A stretch of DNA of 7,209 bases from Candidatus Helarchaeota ASGARD archaeon Hel_GB_B (GTDB lineage: Archaea > Asgardarchaeota > Lokiarchaeia > Helarchaeales > HEL-GB-B), in assembly GCA_005191425.1 (NCBI GenBank), contig SUPR01000136.1, positions 1-7,209 of the forward strand. Reading direction: 5' to 3'. The notes beneath the pieces are model-generated. The model was not told the DNA's origin. It made no database searches and was given only the letters and a program-made list of their open reading frames with translations. This document shows, piece by piece, positions 1,728 through 7,202 of the stretch. A program made the position numbers and the translations under genes. Within the stretch, counting starts at the first letter, position 1; every line of letters starts with the position of its first letter.

Positions 1728-2261
1728 TTAAAATTTATGTGTAATTTTTTCATTTATAATTTTTTCTGCTTCAAGTGCTCTAATTATTTTTTGAATTTCA
1801 ATTACAGCTTGTGGATAAACCTTCATATATGGAGTTAATCCAGTAAATTGTTCCTCTCTTGTCGTTAAAGTAGGGAGACCTCGCGGTCCAAAATACATTG
1901 TTTCGTTAGTTTTTTGTAGTCCATCTAAATAATTTTTAAGAAATTCAATTTGTTCATCAATTGAGTCCATTTTTGAGATTATTCTTTTAATATTTTCAAG
2001 GTCAAAACCTGGGACTCTTTCACATTTTTTACCGCCTTTTAAGAAACGCAATGCTCGATTTTTGTATAAACATTCGCTATGATATGTTTTAAAGGAGTCG
2101 ACCAGTGCAGATTCAATTCTTTTATTTAATTCTTCGTCAAAATCAAGGCCATTTTCTTCGCATATTTCTTTAAATAATTCAAGATATTTTTTATTAATTT
2201 TTATCTTCAATGCTTCGATTTTTGAATTTTTATCATCATAAATTTCTTCTGAAACTGTCAT
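1728..2261 (-). CDS. Hypothetical protein (177 aa) with a ribbon-helix-helix (CopG/RelB-like) N-terminal region
   Basis: The ORF track gives 1728..2270 from GTG. However, AGGTGA (an archaeal SD-like motif) overlaps that GTG and sits 5 nt before the ATG at 2261, which favours 2261. The segment ALKIKINKKYLELFKEICEENGLDFDEELNKRIESAL has the alternating beta-strand, helix, G-turn, helix pattern of RHH proteins. The C-terminal ~120 aa are unrecognised. Confidence 0.7.
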   Translation of the reverse strand: MTVSEEIYDDKNSKIEALKIKINKKYLELFKEICEENGLDFDEELNKRIESALVDSFKTYHSECLYKNRALRFLKGGKKCERVPGFDLENIKRIISKMDSIDEQIEFLKNYLDGLQKTNETMYFGPRGLPTLTTREEQFTGLTPYMKVYPQAVIEIQKIIRALEAEKIINEKITHKF

Positions 2262-2348
2262 AAATTTCACCTACAAATGAGTTTATTATTCTGATTAAAT
2301 TAAAATCATTAAAGGATTTAAACAATTTGTCTTCACCAACAATACTTA

Positions 2349-2372
2349 TTTTGATAATAATAATTATCAAAA
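2349..2372. promoter_or_regulatory. Perfect 10-4-10 palindrome in the divergent intergenic region, candidate operator
   Basis: TTTTGATAAT (2349-2358) AATA ATTATCAAAA (2363-2372). It lies between the divergent RHH gene and the hdrA-mvh operon. Confidence 0.55.
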
Positions 2373-2398
2373 ATTATTTGATATTAGACAATGAAAAG

Positions 2399-2427
2399 AA
2401 AATTTGTTAAAAAAATTTGTTTAACAA
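2399..2427. repeat. Overlapping direct repeat (AAAATTTGTT x2) and 8-8-8 inverted repeat (TTGTTAAA...TTTAACAA)
   Basis: Direct copies are at 2399-2408 and 2412-2421. The inverted arms are at 2404-2411 and 2420-2427. Confidence 0.35.
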
Positions 2428-2582
2428 TAGAAAAGTAAAATTGTCAAAAACATTTAAAGGAAAAATTTTTTTTATTATTATTTAAAGAAAAAAAGAATTA
2501 TCAAATATGAAAAAAAAAGTAATCAAAAATTGGTTATTATAATAAACAGTAATGTTCATGTGGTATATGCAAAAAATAAAGG

Positions 2583-5117
2583 ATGATAAAAAATATGGAT
2601 ATATATTCGATATTATCTCATCCATTGAGAAGAAAAATTCTATATATTTTGGATAAAGAAGGTTATCTACAATATACTGAATTAATGGAAAGATTAGGAT
2701 TAGAAACAACAGGTCAATTAAATTTTCATTTAAAAAAATTAGGAACGCTTATTAATAAAGACAATAAATCTTATTTTCTCACGAAAGAAGGAAAAATGAT
2801 AGTAAAACTAATGAATTTAAATGAGATGCTAATATCTGGAGAAGATATTGAATATTTAAATCCCAAATTTACCGAAATGAATAGGATTGGCGTGATAATT
2901 TGTAGCTGCAATACGCAAGTTGAAGAGCTTATTGATATTAAAGCCTTAAAAAATTATCTAACTAAAATAAAAAATGTAATTTCAGTAAGAATTTTTGATA
3001 CATTATGTCAAGAGAAAAATTTACTCATGATAACAAACTGGGTAAAAGATAATTTTATTAATAAAATAGTGATAGCCGCATGTTCACCAAGGTCCCATCT
3101 ACATGCTTTTGAACGAATTTTTGAGAGTATAGATAAATATAATATAGAAATTGCTAATATAAGAGAACAGTGTTGTTGGGTACATAAAGGTAATTCTAAA
3201 CAGGCGCTTAAAAAAGCTCAACTTTTAATAGAAGCTGCGATTGAAAGAATATCCTTACAAACAAAATTAAATCTTAAAAAAGTTGAATTAATTAGAAGCG
3301 TAGCGATTTTAGGCGGCGGAATTGCAGGAATGACATTGGCATTAAACCTTGCAAGAGCCGGAATTAAAGTTTATTTAATAGAGAAAGCACCTACTTTAGG
3401 AGGAAAAGTAGCGCGTTGGGAACATATTTATGGTGTAGAAGATTGTTCTATCTGCTTTTTATCCGAATTAATAAGAGAATTAGCTAAAAATCCAAATATT
3501 GAAATTTTTACTAATACGACAATTGAACGAGTATCTGGCGAATTTGGAAATTTTACACTTGAGTTATTAAAAAAGCCTCGTTTTGTTGATGAAAAGCGCT
3601 GCACTGGATGTAAACAATGTATTGAAATATGTCCTATTGAAAAAAAAGACCAATATGAGTTTGGACTTAAAAATAGAAAGTTAATTTATATTCCATTTAT
3701 CCATTCATATCCTTATGCAGCTGTTATTGATGAAGAAGATATAATTAATTGTATTCATTGTAGGACATGCGAGAATATTTGTGTTAATAAAGCAATAAAT
3801 CTAAACCAGCAACCTGAAAAACTCCAAATTAAAGTCGGGATTAAAGTTATTGCAATAGGAGCAGATCTCTATACAAATTTAAAAGAATACCATTATGACC
3901 CTAAAAGCGATATAATTACGTCTGCAGAATTTGAAAGGATATTAGCGAGTGATGGACCAACTTCAGGTAATCTTATTAGGCTTTCCAATAAAAAGCCTCC
4001 TAAAACTATTTCAATAATTCAAACAGTTTGTAATGAAAATTACATTGGCGAATTTTGCGATTATCTTGCTTTAAAATATTTAGAAACAATAAAAATAAGA
4101 TGCCCTGAATGCAAGGTTAATATTTTTTATGAAATAAACAAGAGAAAAAATAAATTCTTATTAGACCCCATGGATAAAAGAGTACATTATGTAAAAAAGA
4201 TTGAAATTTTAAAAAGTGGAAATAAAAAATTCGTTATTACTGACGAGAATAAATATGAAAGCGATTTAATTATATTAAATATTAATTTAATTCCTAATAA
4301 AGACTTACCCAATCTTAGAAAAACTTTTGATTTTACTGTAAATGAAAATGGGTTTATGAGCAAAGAAACTTTGGCATCAGGAATTTATGGGATTGGAACA
4401 ATAATGGGACCTTTAAGTTATCAAAGTACGGTCTCTCAAGCTAATAAATTAGCAATTGAAATTATTTCGTTATTATCAAAGGATTATGTAATAGCTGAAC
4501 CCAGCGGAATTGAAATTAATGAAGATAAATGTGGTTATTGTGGGCTATGTACATTATCATGTCATTACAATGCAATTTCTATTGAAGAAAACCGAATAAA
4601 TGTTGATAGATTCAAATGTAAAGGTTGCGGGACATGTGTTAGTATTTGTCCCACTGGCGCTATTAAAATGAATATTGATATGAATGAGAAAATTCTTAAA
4701 ACAATTGAAGTTTATTCAAAATATCCTGAAAAACCAAAAATTATTGCGTTTTGTTGTCAATCATGTGGTTATGCAGCAGCAGATGAAGCAGGACTTAAAA
4801 AAATAGCATATACCCCCAATATATTTATCGTTAAAGTCCCCTGTACTGGTAGAGTTGATACTTTTTTTATTCTAAAATCATTTGAACTAGGATTTGATGG
4901 GGTTATGGTAATTGGATGTAAACCAAATTCTTGTAGATTTATTAATGGGGCGGAAACCATATCTAAAAAGATACAAATGATTAAAGAAGTATTTGGAGAT
5001 AAGATTAAAGATCATTTAATTCACAAATCTTTAAATGCAGTCGAAGGGAATATCTTTGCTAAAACTGTAAACCAGTTTTATGAAAAATTAAAGGAGGAAG
5101 AATTAAATGAAGCTTAA
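2583..5117 (+). CDS. hdrA: Fusion protein: winged-helix (ArsR-like) DNA-binding domain + heterodisulfide reductase subunit A-like flavo-iron-sulfur protein + MvhD/FlpD [2Fe-2S] domain
   Basis: 844-aa ORF; the true start may be the ATG at 2595, after SD-like GGATGAT. It contains wHTH ILSHPLRRKIL...GQLNFHLKKL...YFLTKEG; HdrA N-domain RIGVIICSC...AACSPRSH...ANIREQCCWVH; Rossmann GGGIAG; DCSIC; inserted ferredoxin CTGCKQCIEICP/CIHCRTCENIC; EFERIL..GPT; C-terminal ferredoxin CGYCGLCTLSC/CKGCGTCVSICP; and MvhD KIIAFCCQSCGYAAAD...VPCTGRVD...DGVMVIGCKPNSC. Confidence 0.93.
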   Translation: MIKNMDIYSILSHPLRRKILYILDKEGYLQYTELMERLGLETTGQLNFHLKKLGTLINKDNKSYFLTKEGKMIVKLMNLNEMLISGEDIEYLNPKFTEMNRIGVIICSCNTQVEELIDIKALKNYLTKIKNVISVRIFDTLCQEKNLLMITNWVKDNFINKIVIAACSPRSHLHAFERIFESIDKYNIEIANIREQCCWVHKGNSKQALKKAQLLIEAAIERISLQTKLNLKKVELIRSVAILGGGIAGMTLALNLARAGIKVYLIEKAPTLGGKVARWEHIYGVEDCSICFLSELIRELAKNPNIEIFTNTTIERVSGEFGNFTLELLKKPRFVDEKRCTGCKQCIEICPIEKKDQYEFGLKNRKLIYIPFIHSYPYAAVIDEEDIINCIHCRTCENICVNKAINLNQQPEKLQIKVGIKVIAIGADLYTNLKEYHYDPKSDIITSAEFERILASDGPTSGNLIRLSNKKPPKTISIIQTVCNENYIGEFCDYLALKYLETIKIRCPECKVNIFYEINKRKNKFLLDPMDKRVHYVKKIEILKSGNKKFVITDENKYESDLIILNINLIPNKDLPNLRKTFDFTVNENGFMSKETLASGIYGIGTIMGPLSYQSTVSQANKLAIEIISLLSKDYVIAEPSGIEINEDKCGYCGLCTLSCHYNAISIEENRINVDRFKCKGCGTCVSICPTGAIKMNIDMNEKILKTIEVYSKYPEKPKIIAFCCQSCGYAAADEAGLKKIAYTPNIFIVKVPCTGRVDTFFILKSFELGFDGVMVIGCKPNSCRFINGAETISKKIQMIKEVFGDKIKDHLIHKSLNAVEGNIFAKTVNQFYEKLKEEELNEA
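2595..2830 (+). other. Winged helix-turn-helix domain (ArsR/HTH_20-like) of the fusion protein
   Basis: MDIYSILSHPLRRKILYILDKEGYLQYTELMERLGLETTGQLNFHLKKLGTLINKDNKSYFLTKEGK matches the archaeal ArsR-like pattern (LSHPxRRxIL; LxxHLxxL; YxLTxxG). The end boundary is approximate. Confidence 0.85.
2877..4730 (+). other. hdrA: HdrA-like region (N-terminal Fe-S domain, FAD domain, inserted and C-terminal 2x[4Fe-4S] domains)
   Basis: It begins MNRIGVIICSC at 2877. GxGxxG is at 3312-3329, and CxxCxxCxxxC motifs start at 3600, 3750, 4530 and 4617. Confidence 0.9.
4731..5117 (+). other. mvhD: MvhD/FlpD ([2Fe-2S], methyl-viologen-reducing hydrogenase delta) domain
   Basis: KPKIIAFCCQSCGYAAADEAG, PCTGRVD, DGVMVIGC-x4-C and NAVEGNIFAKTVNQF match the MvhD consensus with the Cys ligands intact. 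Confidence 0.92.
5092..5097 (+). promoter_or_regulatory. Shine-Dalgarno site for the hydrogenase small subunit
   Basis: AGGAGG lies 9 nt upstream of the ATG at 5107. The genes overlap by 11 nt (5107-5117), consistent with translational coupling. Confidence 0.7.
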
Positions 5118-5853
5118 ATTTTCAATTATTTCTTTAACTTCATGCTCTGGTTGCATTAGCGCATTAATATCATTAGATATTTTTGAGGATTTCTTAGAAA
5201 AAGTTGATTTAGTCTATTTTCCATTTATAATGGACGAAAAACGAATCGAAGAGTGTGATGTATTTTTAATAGAAGGGTGTGTTATTGACGATGAACAAAT
5301 TAAATTATTAAAACAAATAAGAAGAAAAGCAAGAAAAGTGGTTGCATTTGGGACATGCGCAGCATTTGGAGGAATATTAAATTTATCAGAAGATATAAAT
5401 GGAGAACCAATTTCTAATTATATTGAAATTGATGGAATAATCCCGGGCTGCCCACCTCCTTTAAAAATATTGGGCAATTCACTTATTAATTTATTAGAAA
5501 ATAAGAAAATTGTACTTCCAGAAAAGAATTTATGTTATGACTGTCCTCTTAAGGAAAATATTCAGAAAAATTTTGAAATTTCTATTGATGAATTAATGGA
5601 CGAAGGGTATAAGACGGAGAAAGTAATACCTAAATGTTTCTTGGAAAAAAATATACTGTGTTTAGGACCTATTACAAGAGCTGGTTGTGATTGTAGCTGT
5701 ATAAAATTAGGTATACCTTGTGAAGGATGTATGGGGCCACTTAAACAGGATTATACCTCAACAATAATAAATTTTCTTAGTTTACTTAATCTTTCAGATG
5801 ATTTAAGAAAATATAAAAGCATATTTTTTCGTTTTTCAAAACCTAATTTATAA
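5107..5853 (+). CDS. mvhG: Group 3 [NiFe]-hydrogenase small (Fe-S) subunit, MvhG/VhuG-like
   Basis: Proximal cluster ligands CSGC, GTCAAFGG and PGCPP are present, as are the medial/distal ligands CYDC, KCFL, LCLGPITRAGC and CIKLGIPCEGCMGP. There is no Tat leader, so it is cytoplasmic. Confidence 0.9.
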   Translation: MKLKFSIISLTSCSGCISALISLDIFEDFLEKVDLVYFPFIMDEKRIEECDVFLIEGCVIDDEQIKLLKQIRRKARKVVAFGTCAAFGGILNLSEDINGEPISNYIEIDGIIPGCPPPLKILGNSLINLLENKKIVLPEKNLCYDCPLKENIQKNFEISIDELMDEGYKTEKVIPKCFLEKNILCLGPITRAGCDCSCIKLGIPCEGCMGPLKQDYTSTIINFLSLLNLSDDLRKYKSIFFRFSKPNL

Positions 5854-5864
5854 AGTTGATAAAA

Positions 5865-7202
5865 ATGAGTGTTGAAATAGATTTATGTACAAGAGTAGAA
5901 GGACAGGGACGAATATATTATAGCTTCCAGAATGGACAAATTTCAAGTGTAAATTTTGAGGTATATGGATTTAGAAATTTTGAAAATCTTCTAGTAAATA
6001 AAAAATTAATTGAAGTCCCAAGAATTACTTCAAGAATATGCGGATTATGTCATGTTGCTCAAAGTATTGTAAGTTGTAAAGCAATTGAAAACATGTTTAA
6101 TATTACACCTTCAAAATATACAGTCTTATTAAGGCGTCTTTTAATGACTGGCGATCATATTAAGTCTCATATTGCACATATCTTTTTTCAAACATTCTCA
6201 GACCTTTTATATATATTACGAGAGGAGAAAAAAAATATTGCCCCAAATAAAATAATCAAATATGACCCAGAAATAACATCACATGCTTTCAATTTAATTA
6301 AATATAGTTCAGCCATTGTAAATATCCTTGGTGGTAGGTTCATACACCCTATCACGCCTGCAATTGGCGGCTTTTATTATACACCATCTAAAAGGAACAT
6401 AGAATCACTTAAAAAATATTTTGCAGAATCATTTAACAGCTTGAAAATAATAATAATAAAATTTATAGATTTATTCCATAAAATCTCACCACCTGATGAA
6501 TTCTCATTTGGAAATCCTGTTTTTATGGGGTTAAACAATGACTCTTATTTTGATATTTATGAAGGTATAATAAGAATTAAAGATAATGATGGGATATTAT
6601 CTTATTTTGATGTAAATAAATATACCGACTATTTAAAAAGAGAAGACAGGGCAGAAATATATATCAATTTTAATGGACAAAAAGAATTATTTGTTGGCCC
6701 AATTGGTCGGTATAACATTGTAGAAAATTATGGAAATGGTATTGTAGATAACTATTTAGATTATTTTAATAAAACTTGGAAATCCAGTTTGCTTTTCTCT
6801 AATTTTTTAGCTTTATTCGAATTATTGATTTTAATCGATCAAGGAATATCCATCTTAAATGATAAAAAATTAACTAGACCTGAACCGACTAATTCAACGA
6901 ACATTATAAAAAAGAGAGAAGGTATTGGCGTTTTGGAAGCTCCAAGAGGGCTTTTAATACATGATTATAAAGTAAATGAAAATAAAAACATTTTAGACAA
7001 AGCTAGGCTTTTTATCCCCACGGAGATGAATATTCCTTTAATAAATAAAATACTCACCCGATATTGTAAGAATTTTTACTCTACAACTCAAGATTTAGAT
7101 AGAATGAAATATAATGCACAAATTATATTGAGAAGTTTTGATCCTTGTATATCTTGTGCAACACATTTTGTTAATAAAATTGATTGTAAAAGATGTGAAT
7201 AA
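5865..7202 (+). CDS. mvhA: Group 3 [NiFe]-hydrogenase large (catalytic) subunit, MvhA-like
   Basis: It has TRVEG, L1 RICGLC (6033-6050), GGRFIHP, VGPIGRYN, EAPRGLLIHDY, PTEMN and L2 RSFDPCISCATH, with all four Ni/Fe Cys ligands. The ATG at 5865 (after SD-like AAGTTGAT) is preferred over the TTG at 5856. Confidence 0.92.
   Translation: MSVEIDLCTRVEGQGRIYYSFQNGQISSVNFEVYGFRNFENLLVNKKLIEVPRITSRICGLCHVAQSIVSCKAIENMFNITPSKYTVLLRRLLMTGDHIKSHIAHIFFQTFSDLLYILREEKKNIAPNKIIKYDPEITSHAFNLIKYSSAIVNILGGRFIHPITPAIGGFYYTPSKRNIESLKKYFAESFNSLKIIIIKFIDLFHKISPPDEFSFGNPVFMGLNNDSYFDIYEGIIRIKDNDGILSYFDVNKYTDYLKREDRAEIYINFNGQKELFVGPIGRYNIVENYGNGIVDNYLDYFNKTWKSSLLFSNFLALFELLILIDQGISILNDKKLTRPEPTNSTNIIKKREGIGVLEAPRGLLIHDYKVNENKNILDKARLFIPTEMNIPLINKILTRYCKNFYSTTQDLDRMKYNAQIILRSFDPCISCATHFVNKIDCKRCE

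Follow-up and report, generated by a model that had tools for sequence, protein, structure and literature searches.

A winged-helix domain fused to HdrA-MvhD in Asgard archaea is accompanied by a conserved, spacing-specific candidate operator and may regulate its own hydrogenase locus

We analyzed a stretch of 7,209 nucleotides (nt), referred to below as the window, which is a whole 7.2-kb contig (C43) of an Asgard archaeal metagenome-assembled genome of 3.54 Mb and 28% GC. The open reading frame (ORF) at 2583-5117 on its forward strand joins an ArsR-like winged helix-turn-helix (wHTH) domain to HdrA and MvhD. This fusion is real and maintained, being neither a singleton nor a chimera, and a palindrome with the core GAYAA-N6-TTRTC recurs at the promoter regions of its orthologs in at least 8 family-level lineages. 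HdrA-MvhD fusions and enzyme-regulator fusions are both known; what is new is the conserved, spacing-specific candidate operator at the locus. The reading that we favor, and to which we give roughly an even chance, is that the protein works as a bifunctional "trigger enzyme", repressing or tuning the locus that encodes it, with the wHTH as the predicted reader of the candidate operator.

The ORF runs without interruption through 844 codons to a stop at 5117, and its translation, its Pfam matches, and its alignment to solved chains all uphold the original prediction of a single frame joining a wHTH, a linker, a full-length HdrA, and MvhD. The wHTH (residues 5-85, Pfam DUF7347, ArsR/SmtB-like) is encoded at 2595-2837 on the forward strand, with its recognition helix (residues 43-56) at 2709-2750. 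It is followed by an acidic linker (residues 86-98, 2838-2876) that is conserved in sequence and predicted to be flexible, the HdrA N-terminal domain (residues 99-232, 2877-3278), the HdrA flavoprotein core (residues 233-700, 3279-4682), and the MvhD/FlpD domain (residues 701-844 plus the stop codon, 4683-5117). The alignment to solved methanogen HdrA chains starts at query residue 98-101, opposite residue 2-10 of those chains, and continues up to ~711, while solved MvhD corresponds to residues 717-837. Since the HdrA homology begins at residue 98-101, residues 1-97 form an extra module at the N-terminus.

Misassembly does not explain the join, because independent contigs from three public metagenome runs, which sampled hydrothermal vents and marine sediment, span it with zero differences (2558-3067, 2300-3065, and 2454-3257, thus covering 2800-2900 around the junction), and because more than 110 orthologs share the architecture. 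The X4 contigs left 2744-3002 without coverage, and no inference was drawn from them. The full-length orthologs came from a word-indexed search, measure 839-866 residues at 60-79% identity, and all carry PF24038 together with the HdrA and FlpD families; their named hosts are Hel-, Loki-/Promethe-, Thor-, Odin-, Hod-, and Hermodarchaeota. More divergent clusters of the same architecture, confirmed by Pfam and including one from Bathyarchaeia, emerged when the domain alone was used in an exhaustive search without a profile, and a Jordarchaeia locus likewise carries a wHTH-HdrA fusion. Among 400 genomes of the phylum, ~118 from at least 9 families encode the wHTH and the HdrA N-terminus in one uninterrupted frame. 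The orthologous loci were collected in steps: a query with the single protein returned none, an alignment query returned 7 true orthologous loci, and a genome search supplied the remainder. The fusion is thus not rare, since the architecture is widespread in Asgard archaea and also present in Bathyarchaeia. Across 121 orthologs, column conservation was 68% in the wHTH, 56% in the linker, and 62-69% in the enzyme domains, and T43, G44, Q45, L46, N47, F48, and H49 of the recognition helix were essentially invariant.

Several lines of evidence identify the N-terminal module as a repressor-type domain. DUF7347 (PF24038, HTH_20 clan) matched residues 6-76 at 46.2 bits against a cut-off of 27.6, accompanied by a weaker HTH_24 match. 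The DUF7347-type family is large and archaeal, with 905 cluster representatives at E < 1e-3; most members are 90-300 residues long with an N-terminal wHTH, some are annotated as ArsR-family regulators, and the fused wHTH retains every position that the family conserves. When a profile of 36 family members was compared with the PDB, it matched the solved ArsR-like protein 1y0u at E 2e-7, followed by PagR, ArsR, CadC, and HlyU. An AlphaFold2 model of the domain (pLDDT 90.6, pTM 0.79) has helices at residues 3-7, 10-22, 27-34, and 39-52, strands at 53-56 and 59-62, and a last helix at 64-81. Its top Foldseek matches were CadC, YodB, PagR, NolR with DNA, HlyU, and QsrR with DNA, all of them DNA-binding repressors, at TM-scores of 0.63-0.75 and E-values that all lie just above 1e-3, so that our reading of them depends on the TM-scores and on the uniform identity of the matches as regulators. 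The Pfam assignment, the profile match to 1y0u, and the domain model agree with the ArsR-like wHTH that had been called from the window. The wHTH is basic, with an isoelectric point of 9.2 (also the median of 33 orthologs), and the linker is acidic (4.05). The domain is thus by its predicted fold a conserved repressor-type DNA-binding domain, for which DNA binding is predicted.

Structure prediction with two copies of the wHTH gave an interface score (ipSAE) of 0.57 vs 0.00 for the best control, with a partner pLDDT of at least 84 and at least 63% of contacts recurring between runs; among solved structures, 20 of 30 homodimers and 1 of 23 monomers reach the ipSAE mark applied. The predicted interface is symmetric, is formed by N-terminal residues and the last helix, and would leave the recognition helix free. 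ArsR-type dimers are already solved, so the prediction may mirror what the model has learned from them and need not count as independent evidence. No ORF of the genome besides the fusion has the reading head TG.[LF]N[FY]H[LI], and the two further DUF7347-like ORFs carry different recognition helices.

A candidate operator lies in the intergenic region upstream of the fusion gene. This perfect 20-bp palindrome, TTGATAA-N6-TTATCAA (TTGATAATAATAATTATCAA), occupies 2351-2370, 225 nt 5' of ATG 2595 and 81 nt 5' of the GTG at 2270 of a divergent gene. The regions 5' of the gene were oriented and aligned at the start codon, first for 37 orthologous loci and then for 20 others. The 8-mer TTGTCAAA was present in 10 of 34 upstream regions vs 0.28 expected, TTTGATAA and ATTATCAA were also flagged, and the flagged 8-mers resolve into the palindrome TTGAYAA-N6-TTRTCAA. 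Its core, GAYAA-N6-TTRTC, was found in 30 of 54 non-redundant upstream regions of 450 nt, with 41 sites in all. When the same half-sites were placed at spacings of 0-5 and 7-14, each spacing yielded 0-1 sites, while inverted and direct arrangements yielded 0-7, and coding sequence from the same loci contained 1 core site in 67 kb. The half-sites are kept while spacers and flanks vary, even in the ~50%-GC intergenic regions of one family and where fusion proteins share just 40-50% identity.

The palindrome is also specific to the locus. Across 71 genomes of the class, the exact 20-mer occurred 66 times vs 20 for a reversed control; 13 of these sites lie within 270 nt 5' of the wHTH-hdrA start, and another 9 are found farther upstream on the contig that carries it, at distances of 1-11 kb. 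Seven exact sites were fetched from genomes lacking the fusion, and each was inside an ORF, as expected of chance matches. In the 3.54-Mb genome of the window, the exact TTGAYAA-N6-TTRTCAA has two occurrences, one of which is the site at 2351-2370. The palindrome is retained at the locus though the divergent neighbor varies between lineages. In most Loki-type and Jordarchaeia loci, the immediate divergent neighbor of wHTH-hdrA is a gene for a 205-225-residue protein beginning MEVLELK, whereas in the genome of the window the palindrome stays 5' of wHTH-hdrA beside an unrelated 180-residue gene; there the homolog of the 209-residue (MEVLELK-type) gene is on another contig, where no core site was listed.

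The second exact site of the genome is also intergenic (G000:C65:34294-34313; L119:3295-3314) and stands ~180 nt 5' of a gene for a 318-residue radical-SAM protein, with a ferredoxin-thioredoxin reductase beta-chain gene and a cation-efflux gene as neighbors; it may mark a second member of the regulon. Other repeats accompany the window site. A degenerate second site, TAGAAAA-N6-TTGTCAA, at 2428-2447 has two mismatches and a good right half (TTGTCAA, 2441-2447), and would be weak alone; sites of the form ...AAAATTGTCAAAA occupy similar places in the leader regions of Loki-type orthologs. The same intergenic region holds a 24-bp palindrome, TTGTTAAA-N8-TTTAACAA (2404-2427), and a 26-nt direct repeat (2393-2418 and 2430-2455), neither of which was found conserved in relatives. 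A core match, GATAA-AGAAGG-TTATC, falls within the wHTH coding sequence (2652-2671, encoding LDKEGYL); it is probably coincidental, since it is the sole coding-region match in the 67 kb.

Where it adjoins the fusion gene, the divergent MEVLELK-type operon (minus strand; L012:3241-5691, L013:3321-5668, and L149:121-738) encodes the 205-225-residue MEVLELKP protein, a ~243-residue paralog, and an MtdA-like (Mpt_N) protein, the latter two of which are fused in Jordarchaeia. In genome G206, a distant palindrome lies 168 nt 5' of a 205-residue gene whose product begins MEVLELK and which is divergent from an HdrBC-like/double-HdrA/MvhD/FrhB-like cluster. The immediate upstream region in Bathyarchaeia contains 0 core sites, and one core site lies just 3' of mvhA, between genes for a 179-residue protein and a major facilitator superfamily transporter; this downstream site is a single observation and was not used as support.

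The enzyme part has the hallmarks of HdrA and MvhD. Residues 98-711 align with solved HdrA at E 1e-117, and invariant among the orthologs are the GGGxxG motif of the flavin adenine dinucleotide (FAD) site, C107, C109, C142, and C167 of the N-terminal domain (which also has conserved C197 and C198), the flavin-adjacent CxxC pair C288/C291, and two CxxCxxCxxxC motifs in each of the inserted and C-terminal ferredoxin domains (8 Cys each). Pfam places FAD/NAD-binding and 4Fe-4S families mid-protein and FlpD/MvhD (PF02662) at residues 720-838 with 113.8 bits vs a cut-off of 22.3; solved MvhD chains match at E 6e-24, and the MvhD [2Fe-2S] ligands C724, C725, C728, C754, C779, and C784 are invariant. 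In the NCBIfam HdrA2/HdrA models, the protein scores 595, 436, and 381 bits, short of the respective cut-offs of 1100, 1300, and 1400, although residues 101-838 align with positions 1-770 of 777 of the HdrA2 model.

Downstream, a [NiFe]-hydrogenase small subunit of MvhG/VhuG type (5107-5853, forward strand; Pfam Oxidored_q6) overlaps the hdrA-mvhD stop by 11 nt and is followed by an MvhA-like group 3 large subunit (5856-7202, forward strand; Pfam NiFeSe_Hases). The small subunit is syntenic in 7 of 7 long orthologous loci and in Bathyarchaeia, and scores 139 bits, under the cut-off, with NCBIfam VhuG. The matches of the large subunit to ShyA, HydA, and VhuA all fall far below cut-off, with group 3b sulfhydrogenase alpha models scoring about the same as VhuA, and the genome has one other [NiFe] large-subunit homolog, at 26% identity. 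The adjacency of mvhG and mvhA to hdrA-mvhD is thus conserved while the family-level NCBIfam scores are far under cut-off, and by sequence the hydrogenase subunits appear to be divergent group-3 forms.

One cysteine motif is missing from the otherwise complete set. In methanogens, the HA4 cluster passes the high-potential electron from FAD to HdrB (PMC13580544). The window protein and the main-clade consensus lack the HA4 C...C...CC motif (residues ~477-510, window 4011-4112). This motif is kept by all seven HdrA paralogs of the genome that have no wHTH and by distant forms of wHTH-HdrA, those of Bathyarchaeia among them. Guided by the alignment, we provisionally take it to belong to the FAD-proximal cluster HA4. 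Neither hdrB nor hdrC was found in the window or beside the gene in the 7 long orthologous loci; the search did not extend to the remainder of the genome, and HdrBC may still assemble in trans. The loss of HA4 fits the absence of hdrBC from the operon, and the main-clade proteins are probably not heterodisulfide reductases. A nearly invariant Cys510 lies near the lost motif. At residues 197-198 (3171-3176), the main clade has Cys-Cys in NIREQCCWVH where paralogs have DS, DT, CS, or VS; some HdrA proteins have selenocysteine or cysteine at this position. Selenocysteine-containing HdrA/VhuD has reportedly been described for Asgard archaea, and several HdrA and MvhD paralogs on G000 contigs C122, C26, C167, C41, and C118 contain in-frame TGA codons consistent with it.

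How might such a protein act as a trigger enzyme? In the mechanism that we propose, HdrA-MvhD would form a soluble group-3 [NiFe] hydrogenase complex together with MvhG and MvhA and would have gained an N-terminal ArsR-like wHTH. Because HdrA is dimeric, two winged helices would be available, and, paired through their N- and C-terminal helices, they could read both half-sites of GAYAA-N6-TTRTC in the promoter region of their own gene. In many relatives, they would also read operators at the promoter of the neighboring divergent operon, which includes the MtdA-like one-carbon enzyme. The N-terminal domain of HdrA is part of a redox-driven mobile arm in the methanogen Mvh-Hdr complex (PMC13580544), and the short acidic 14-residue linker would tie the wHTH to this domain. 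Since the wHTH is attached to the mobile-arm domain, the redox or conformational state of the flavin and iron-sulfur clusters could determine how far apart the two DNA-reading heads stand and thereby gate operator binding, with repression of the own and the neighboring operon in one state. We infer operator binding by the fusion protein, the direction of regulation (probably repression), and redox gating. The most far-reaching version, in which electrons from the [NiFe] site pass through the iron-sulfur and flavin wire and move the arm, the arm sets the distance between the winged helices, and operator occupancy reads out H2 partial pressure or the redox state of ferredoxin, strikes us as improbable; if it were true, a whole hydrogenase would serve as a one-component hydrogen- and redox-sensing transcription factor in the archaeal lineages closest to eukaryotes. 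The original prediction had proposed either a one-component factor or an enzyme that moonlights as regulator of its own operon: regulation of the own operon gains real if indirect support from the conserved operator, a strong comparative-genomic signal, while the evidence does not decide between sensor and moonlighting enzyme.

A number of observations weigh against the trigger-enzyme reading. The N6 core is not enriched genome-wide (23 sites vs 24-42 for other spacings in the genome of the window), which means that the signal is local and that there is no large regulon. An exact core site is missing from 24 of the 54 loci, including most of the large genus g25, in which an frhB-like gene precedes wHTH-hdrA, the immediate upstream region has only degenerate sites, and a perfect palindrome lies ~10.6 kb off, adjoining the MEVLELK-type operon. 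The window site itself is nearer to the divergent gene than to the fusion gene. Archaeal repressors usually abut the TATA box, but only 4 of the 41 sites adjoin a TATA-like box on the strand of the gene and 2 more do so on the other strand. Repression is for this reason a guess, and a general claim that the operator overlaps the promoter core was reduced to a lead from four lineages. The 209-residue (MEVLELK-type) gene is co-distributed with the fusion, both being absent from all 14 genomes of family f5 (among them closed genomes of 4.4 and 6.0 Mb), and the gene is missing in family f3 as well; because of this co-distribution, the phyletic pattern cannot assign the palindrome to the fusion as opposed to the 209-residue gene. 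Lastly, the full-length AlphaFold2 model (pLDDT 64.8, pTM 0.44), in which the wHTH is the best part (82-87) and linker residues 85-98 fall below 50, is too poor to judge the packing of the wHTH on HdrA.

The wHTH could instead be a structural or docking module that ties the HdrA-MvhD/MvhGA complex to a partner protein or stabilizes the dimer, with the palindrome belonging to another transcription factor of the locus, a possibility that we consider rather unlikely. It has a counterpart in BamF, which serves as MvhD-like adaptor in a bifurcating complex of the HdrA type and whose wHTH forms an interface with BamI (bioRxiv 10.64898/2026.04.10.717634), and this too counts against a DNA-reading role. 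The conserved sequence of the linker means that it could pack against something, and the palindrome of genus g25 sits with a neighboring operon rather than directly 5' of wHTH-hdrA. On the other hand, the recognition helix is the invariant stretch of the domain, the domain keeps all residues that are conserved in standalone ArsR-like regulators, the basic wHTH is joined by a linker predicted to be disordered rather than packed, and the predicted dimer would leave the recognition helices exposed. Pfam detected no other conserved DNA-binding gene among the neighbors at the locus, and neither a Pfam family nor regulator-like relatives were found for the 209-residue protein.

Two further alternatives concern the enzyme part. 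HdrA-MvhD, MvhG, and MvhA could form a dedicated hydrogen/redox sensor that carries little flux and has DNA binding as its sole output, in a role like that of regulatory hydrogenases. The missing HA4 motif of the main clade, set beside its retention in the wHTH-less paralogs, the absence of hdrB and hdrC from the operon, and the scores of all three subunits well under the cut-offs for their enzyme families would fit such a sensor. Nevertheless, identity of 60-65% across Asgard classes, with all remaining cofactor sites intact (five Fe-S sites, FAD, and the ligands of MvhD), resembles a working enzyme, and the complex is the only close group-3c-like hydrogenase in the genome. The HA4 motif persists in the distant wHTH-HdrA of Bathyarchaeia and of two Asgard families, which shows that HA4 loss is uncoupled from acquisition of the wHTH. 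In other Asgard lineages, hdrA and group 3 hydrogenase genes are among the most transcribed metabolic genes (PMC11291895), which would be unusual for a pure regulator, although those transcripts were not shown to derive from a wHTH-HdrA fusion. We regard a dedicated sensor as distinctly unlikely. Still less probable, to the point of being barely credible, is that translation starts mainly at Met99 (2877-2879) to give an ordinary HdrA-MvhD, with the wHTH expressed rarely or separately. This methionine does stand exactly where HdrA homology starts, as had been pointed out, but the suggestion that it is a fusion scar did not survive comparison: 111 of 121 orthologs, and 30 of 33 non-redundant loci, have Ile there, and an internal start is therefore not conserved. 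No ortholog has a stop codon or frame change between the wHTH and HdrA, and the in-frame wHTH is as conserved as the enzyme part.

Known systems offer parallels to the proposed trigger enzyme. PutA of E. coli and Salmonella is a flavoenzyme whose N-terminal DNA-binding domain represses its own divergent operon under a flavin-redox switch, and BirA is likewise a known enzyme-regulator fusion. PutA differs in being a bacterial ribbon-helix-helix protein of proline catabolism, whereas the protein described here combines a winged helix with a [NiFe]-wired, bifurcation-type flavoprotein in which redox switching is hypothetical. The closest archaeal comparison is RbkR, an enzyme-wHTH autoregulator whose DNA binding is modulated by substrate and product (PMC5397151). 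Both systems join an archaeal enzyme to a winged helix, have operators predicted in their own promoters by comparative genomics, and have a small local regulon. RbkR is, in contrast, a small single-domain kinase with a wHTH of a family other than DUF7347/ArsR-like, characterized by electrophoretic mobility shift assays and a DNA co-crystal, while the enzyme part of the fusion is a 750-residue flavo-iron-sulfur subunit of a multi-subunit hydrogenase, known from its sequence.

The wHTH shares its fold, helix order, and the "HL..L" signature of the recognition helix with CadC, HlyU, NolR, PagR, and YodB/QsrR, its predicted dimer through terminal helices would resemble theirs, and the candidate operator resembles those of ArsR/SmtB-type repressors in being a palindrome with half-sites about one helical turn apart. 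Those repressors are standalone proteins of ~100 residues with metal- or thiol-reactive sensing inside the domain; the fused wHTH has no evident metal or thiol site, and the tethered redox enzyme would be its sensor. The motif of BamF lies inside the MvhD-like adaptor and contacts BamI, whereas here a separate N-terminal domain on a flexible linker has an intact regulator-type recognition helix and a matching candidate operator nearby. As for the enzyme, HdrA2 of Methanosarcina and the VhuD-HdrA fusions (NF040770) similarly place HdrA and MvhD, with FAD, ferredoxin clusters, and MvhD ligands, in one polypeptide. The fusion differs from HdrA2 in its sub-threshold, non-equivalog score (595 vs 1100 bits), its extra 97-residue wHTH and linker, the main-clade loss of the HA4 motif, and an operon that contains mvhG and mvhA and no hdrBC.

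Translation of the fusion probably starts at ATG 2595 (M5), since the N-termini of the orthologs align there, the database copy has 840 residues, and a Shine-Dalgarno-like GGATGA (2581-2586, forward strand) lies 9 nt upstream. GGAGG/GGTGG-like strings occupy the equivalent place in orthologs, although a regular-expression search for Shine-Dalgarno sequences was uninformative, being so permissive that it also matched 21 of 33 internal control positions. The divergent gene that shares the intergenic region with the palindrome (1728-2270, minus strand) encodes a 180-residue protein of unassigned function; it has no Pfam family, is kept solely in the closest relatives, and is without similarity to the divergent genes at other orthologous loci. 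Farther away on the minus strand, three collinear ORF fragments (898-1020, 244-888, and 1-192) lie within 1-1020. The first contains a Walker A motif (GRNNTGKS), the last terminates in IILIEEPEN, and together they resemble one AAA/ABC-type ATPase broken by in-frame stops.

The literature that we searched, with incomplete coverage, gave no description of a wHTH on HdrA or of the operator, in line with the original prediction, which knew of no characterized HdrA with a DNA-binding domain; databases annotate the domain only, with Pfam listing it and NCBI labeling fragments "DUF7347 domain-containing protein". A survey that lists many Asgard HdrA fusions leaves a DNA-binding domain unmentioned (PMC11237513), and in a paper on Atabey- and Freyarchaeia the pairing of the group 3c hydrogenase with Hdr is taken to be ordinary bifurcation. 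Models of Asgard syntrophy and eukaryogenesis routinely interpret "MvhADG-HdrABC-like" genes as plain electron bifurcation. About one sampled genome in three encodes, in that gene cluster, an HdrA with a conserved repressor-type domain and a matching candidate operator, and the main-clade loss of the Fe-S cluster supplying HdrBC suggests that its members do not act as heterodisulfide reductases. The fusion thus offers a testable link between hydrogen or redox state and gene expression in organisms with almost no known transcription-factor targets, and both the operator, at 20 bp, and the domain, at ~95 residues, are of a size that suits in vitro tests. If the proposed regulation is true, it would extend the trigger-enzyme principle of PutA and RbkR to a multi-cofactor hydrogenase complex.

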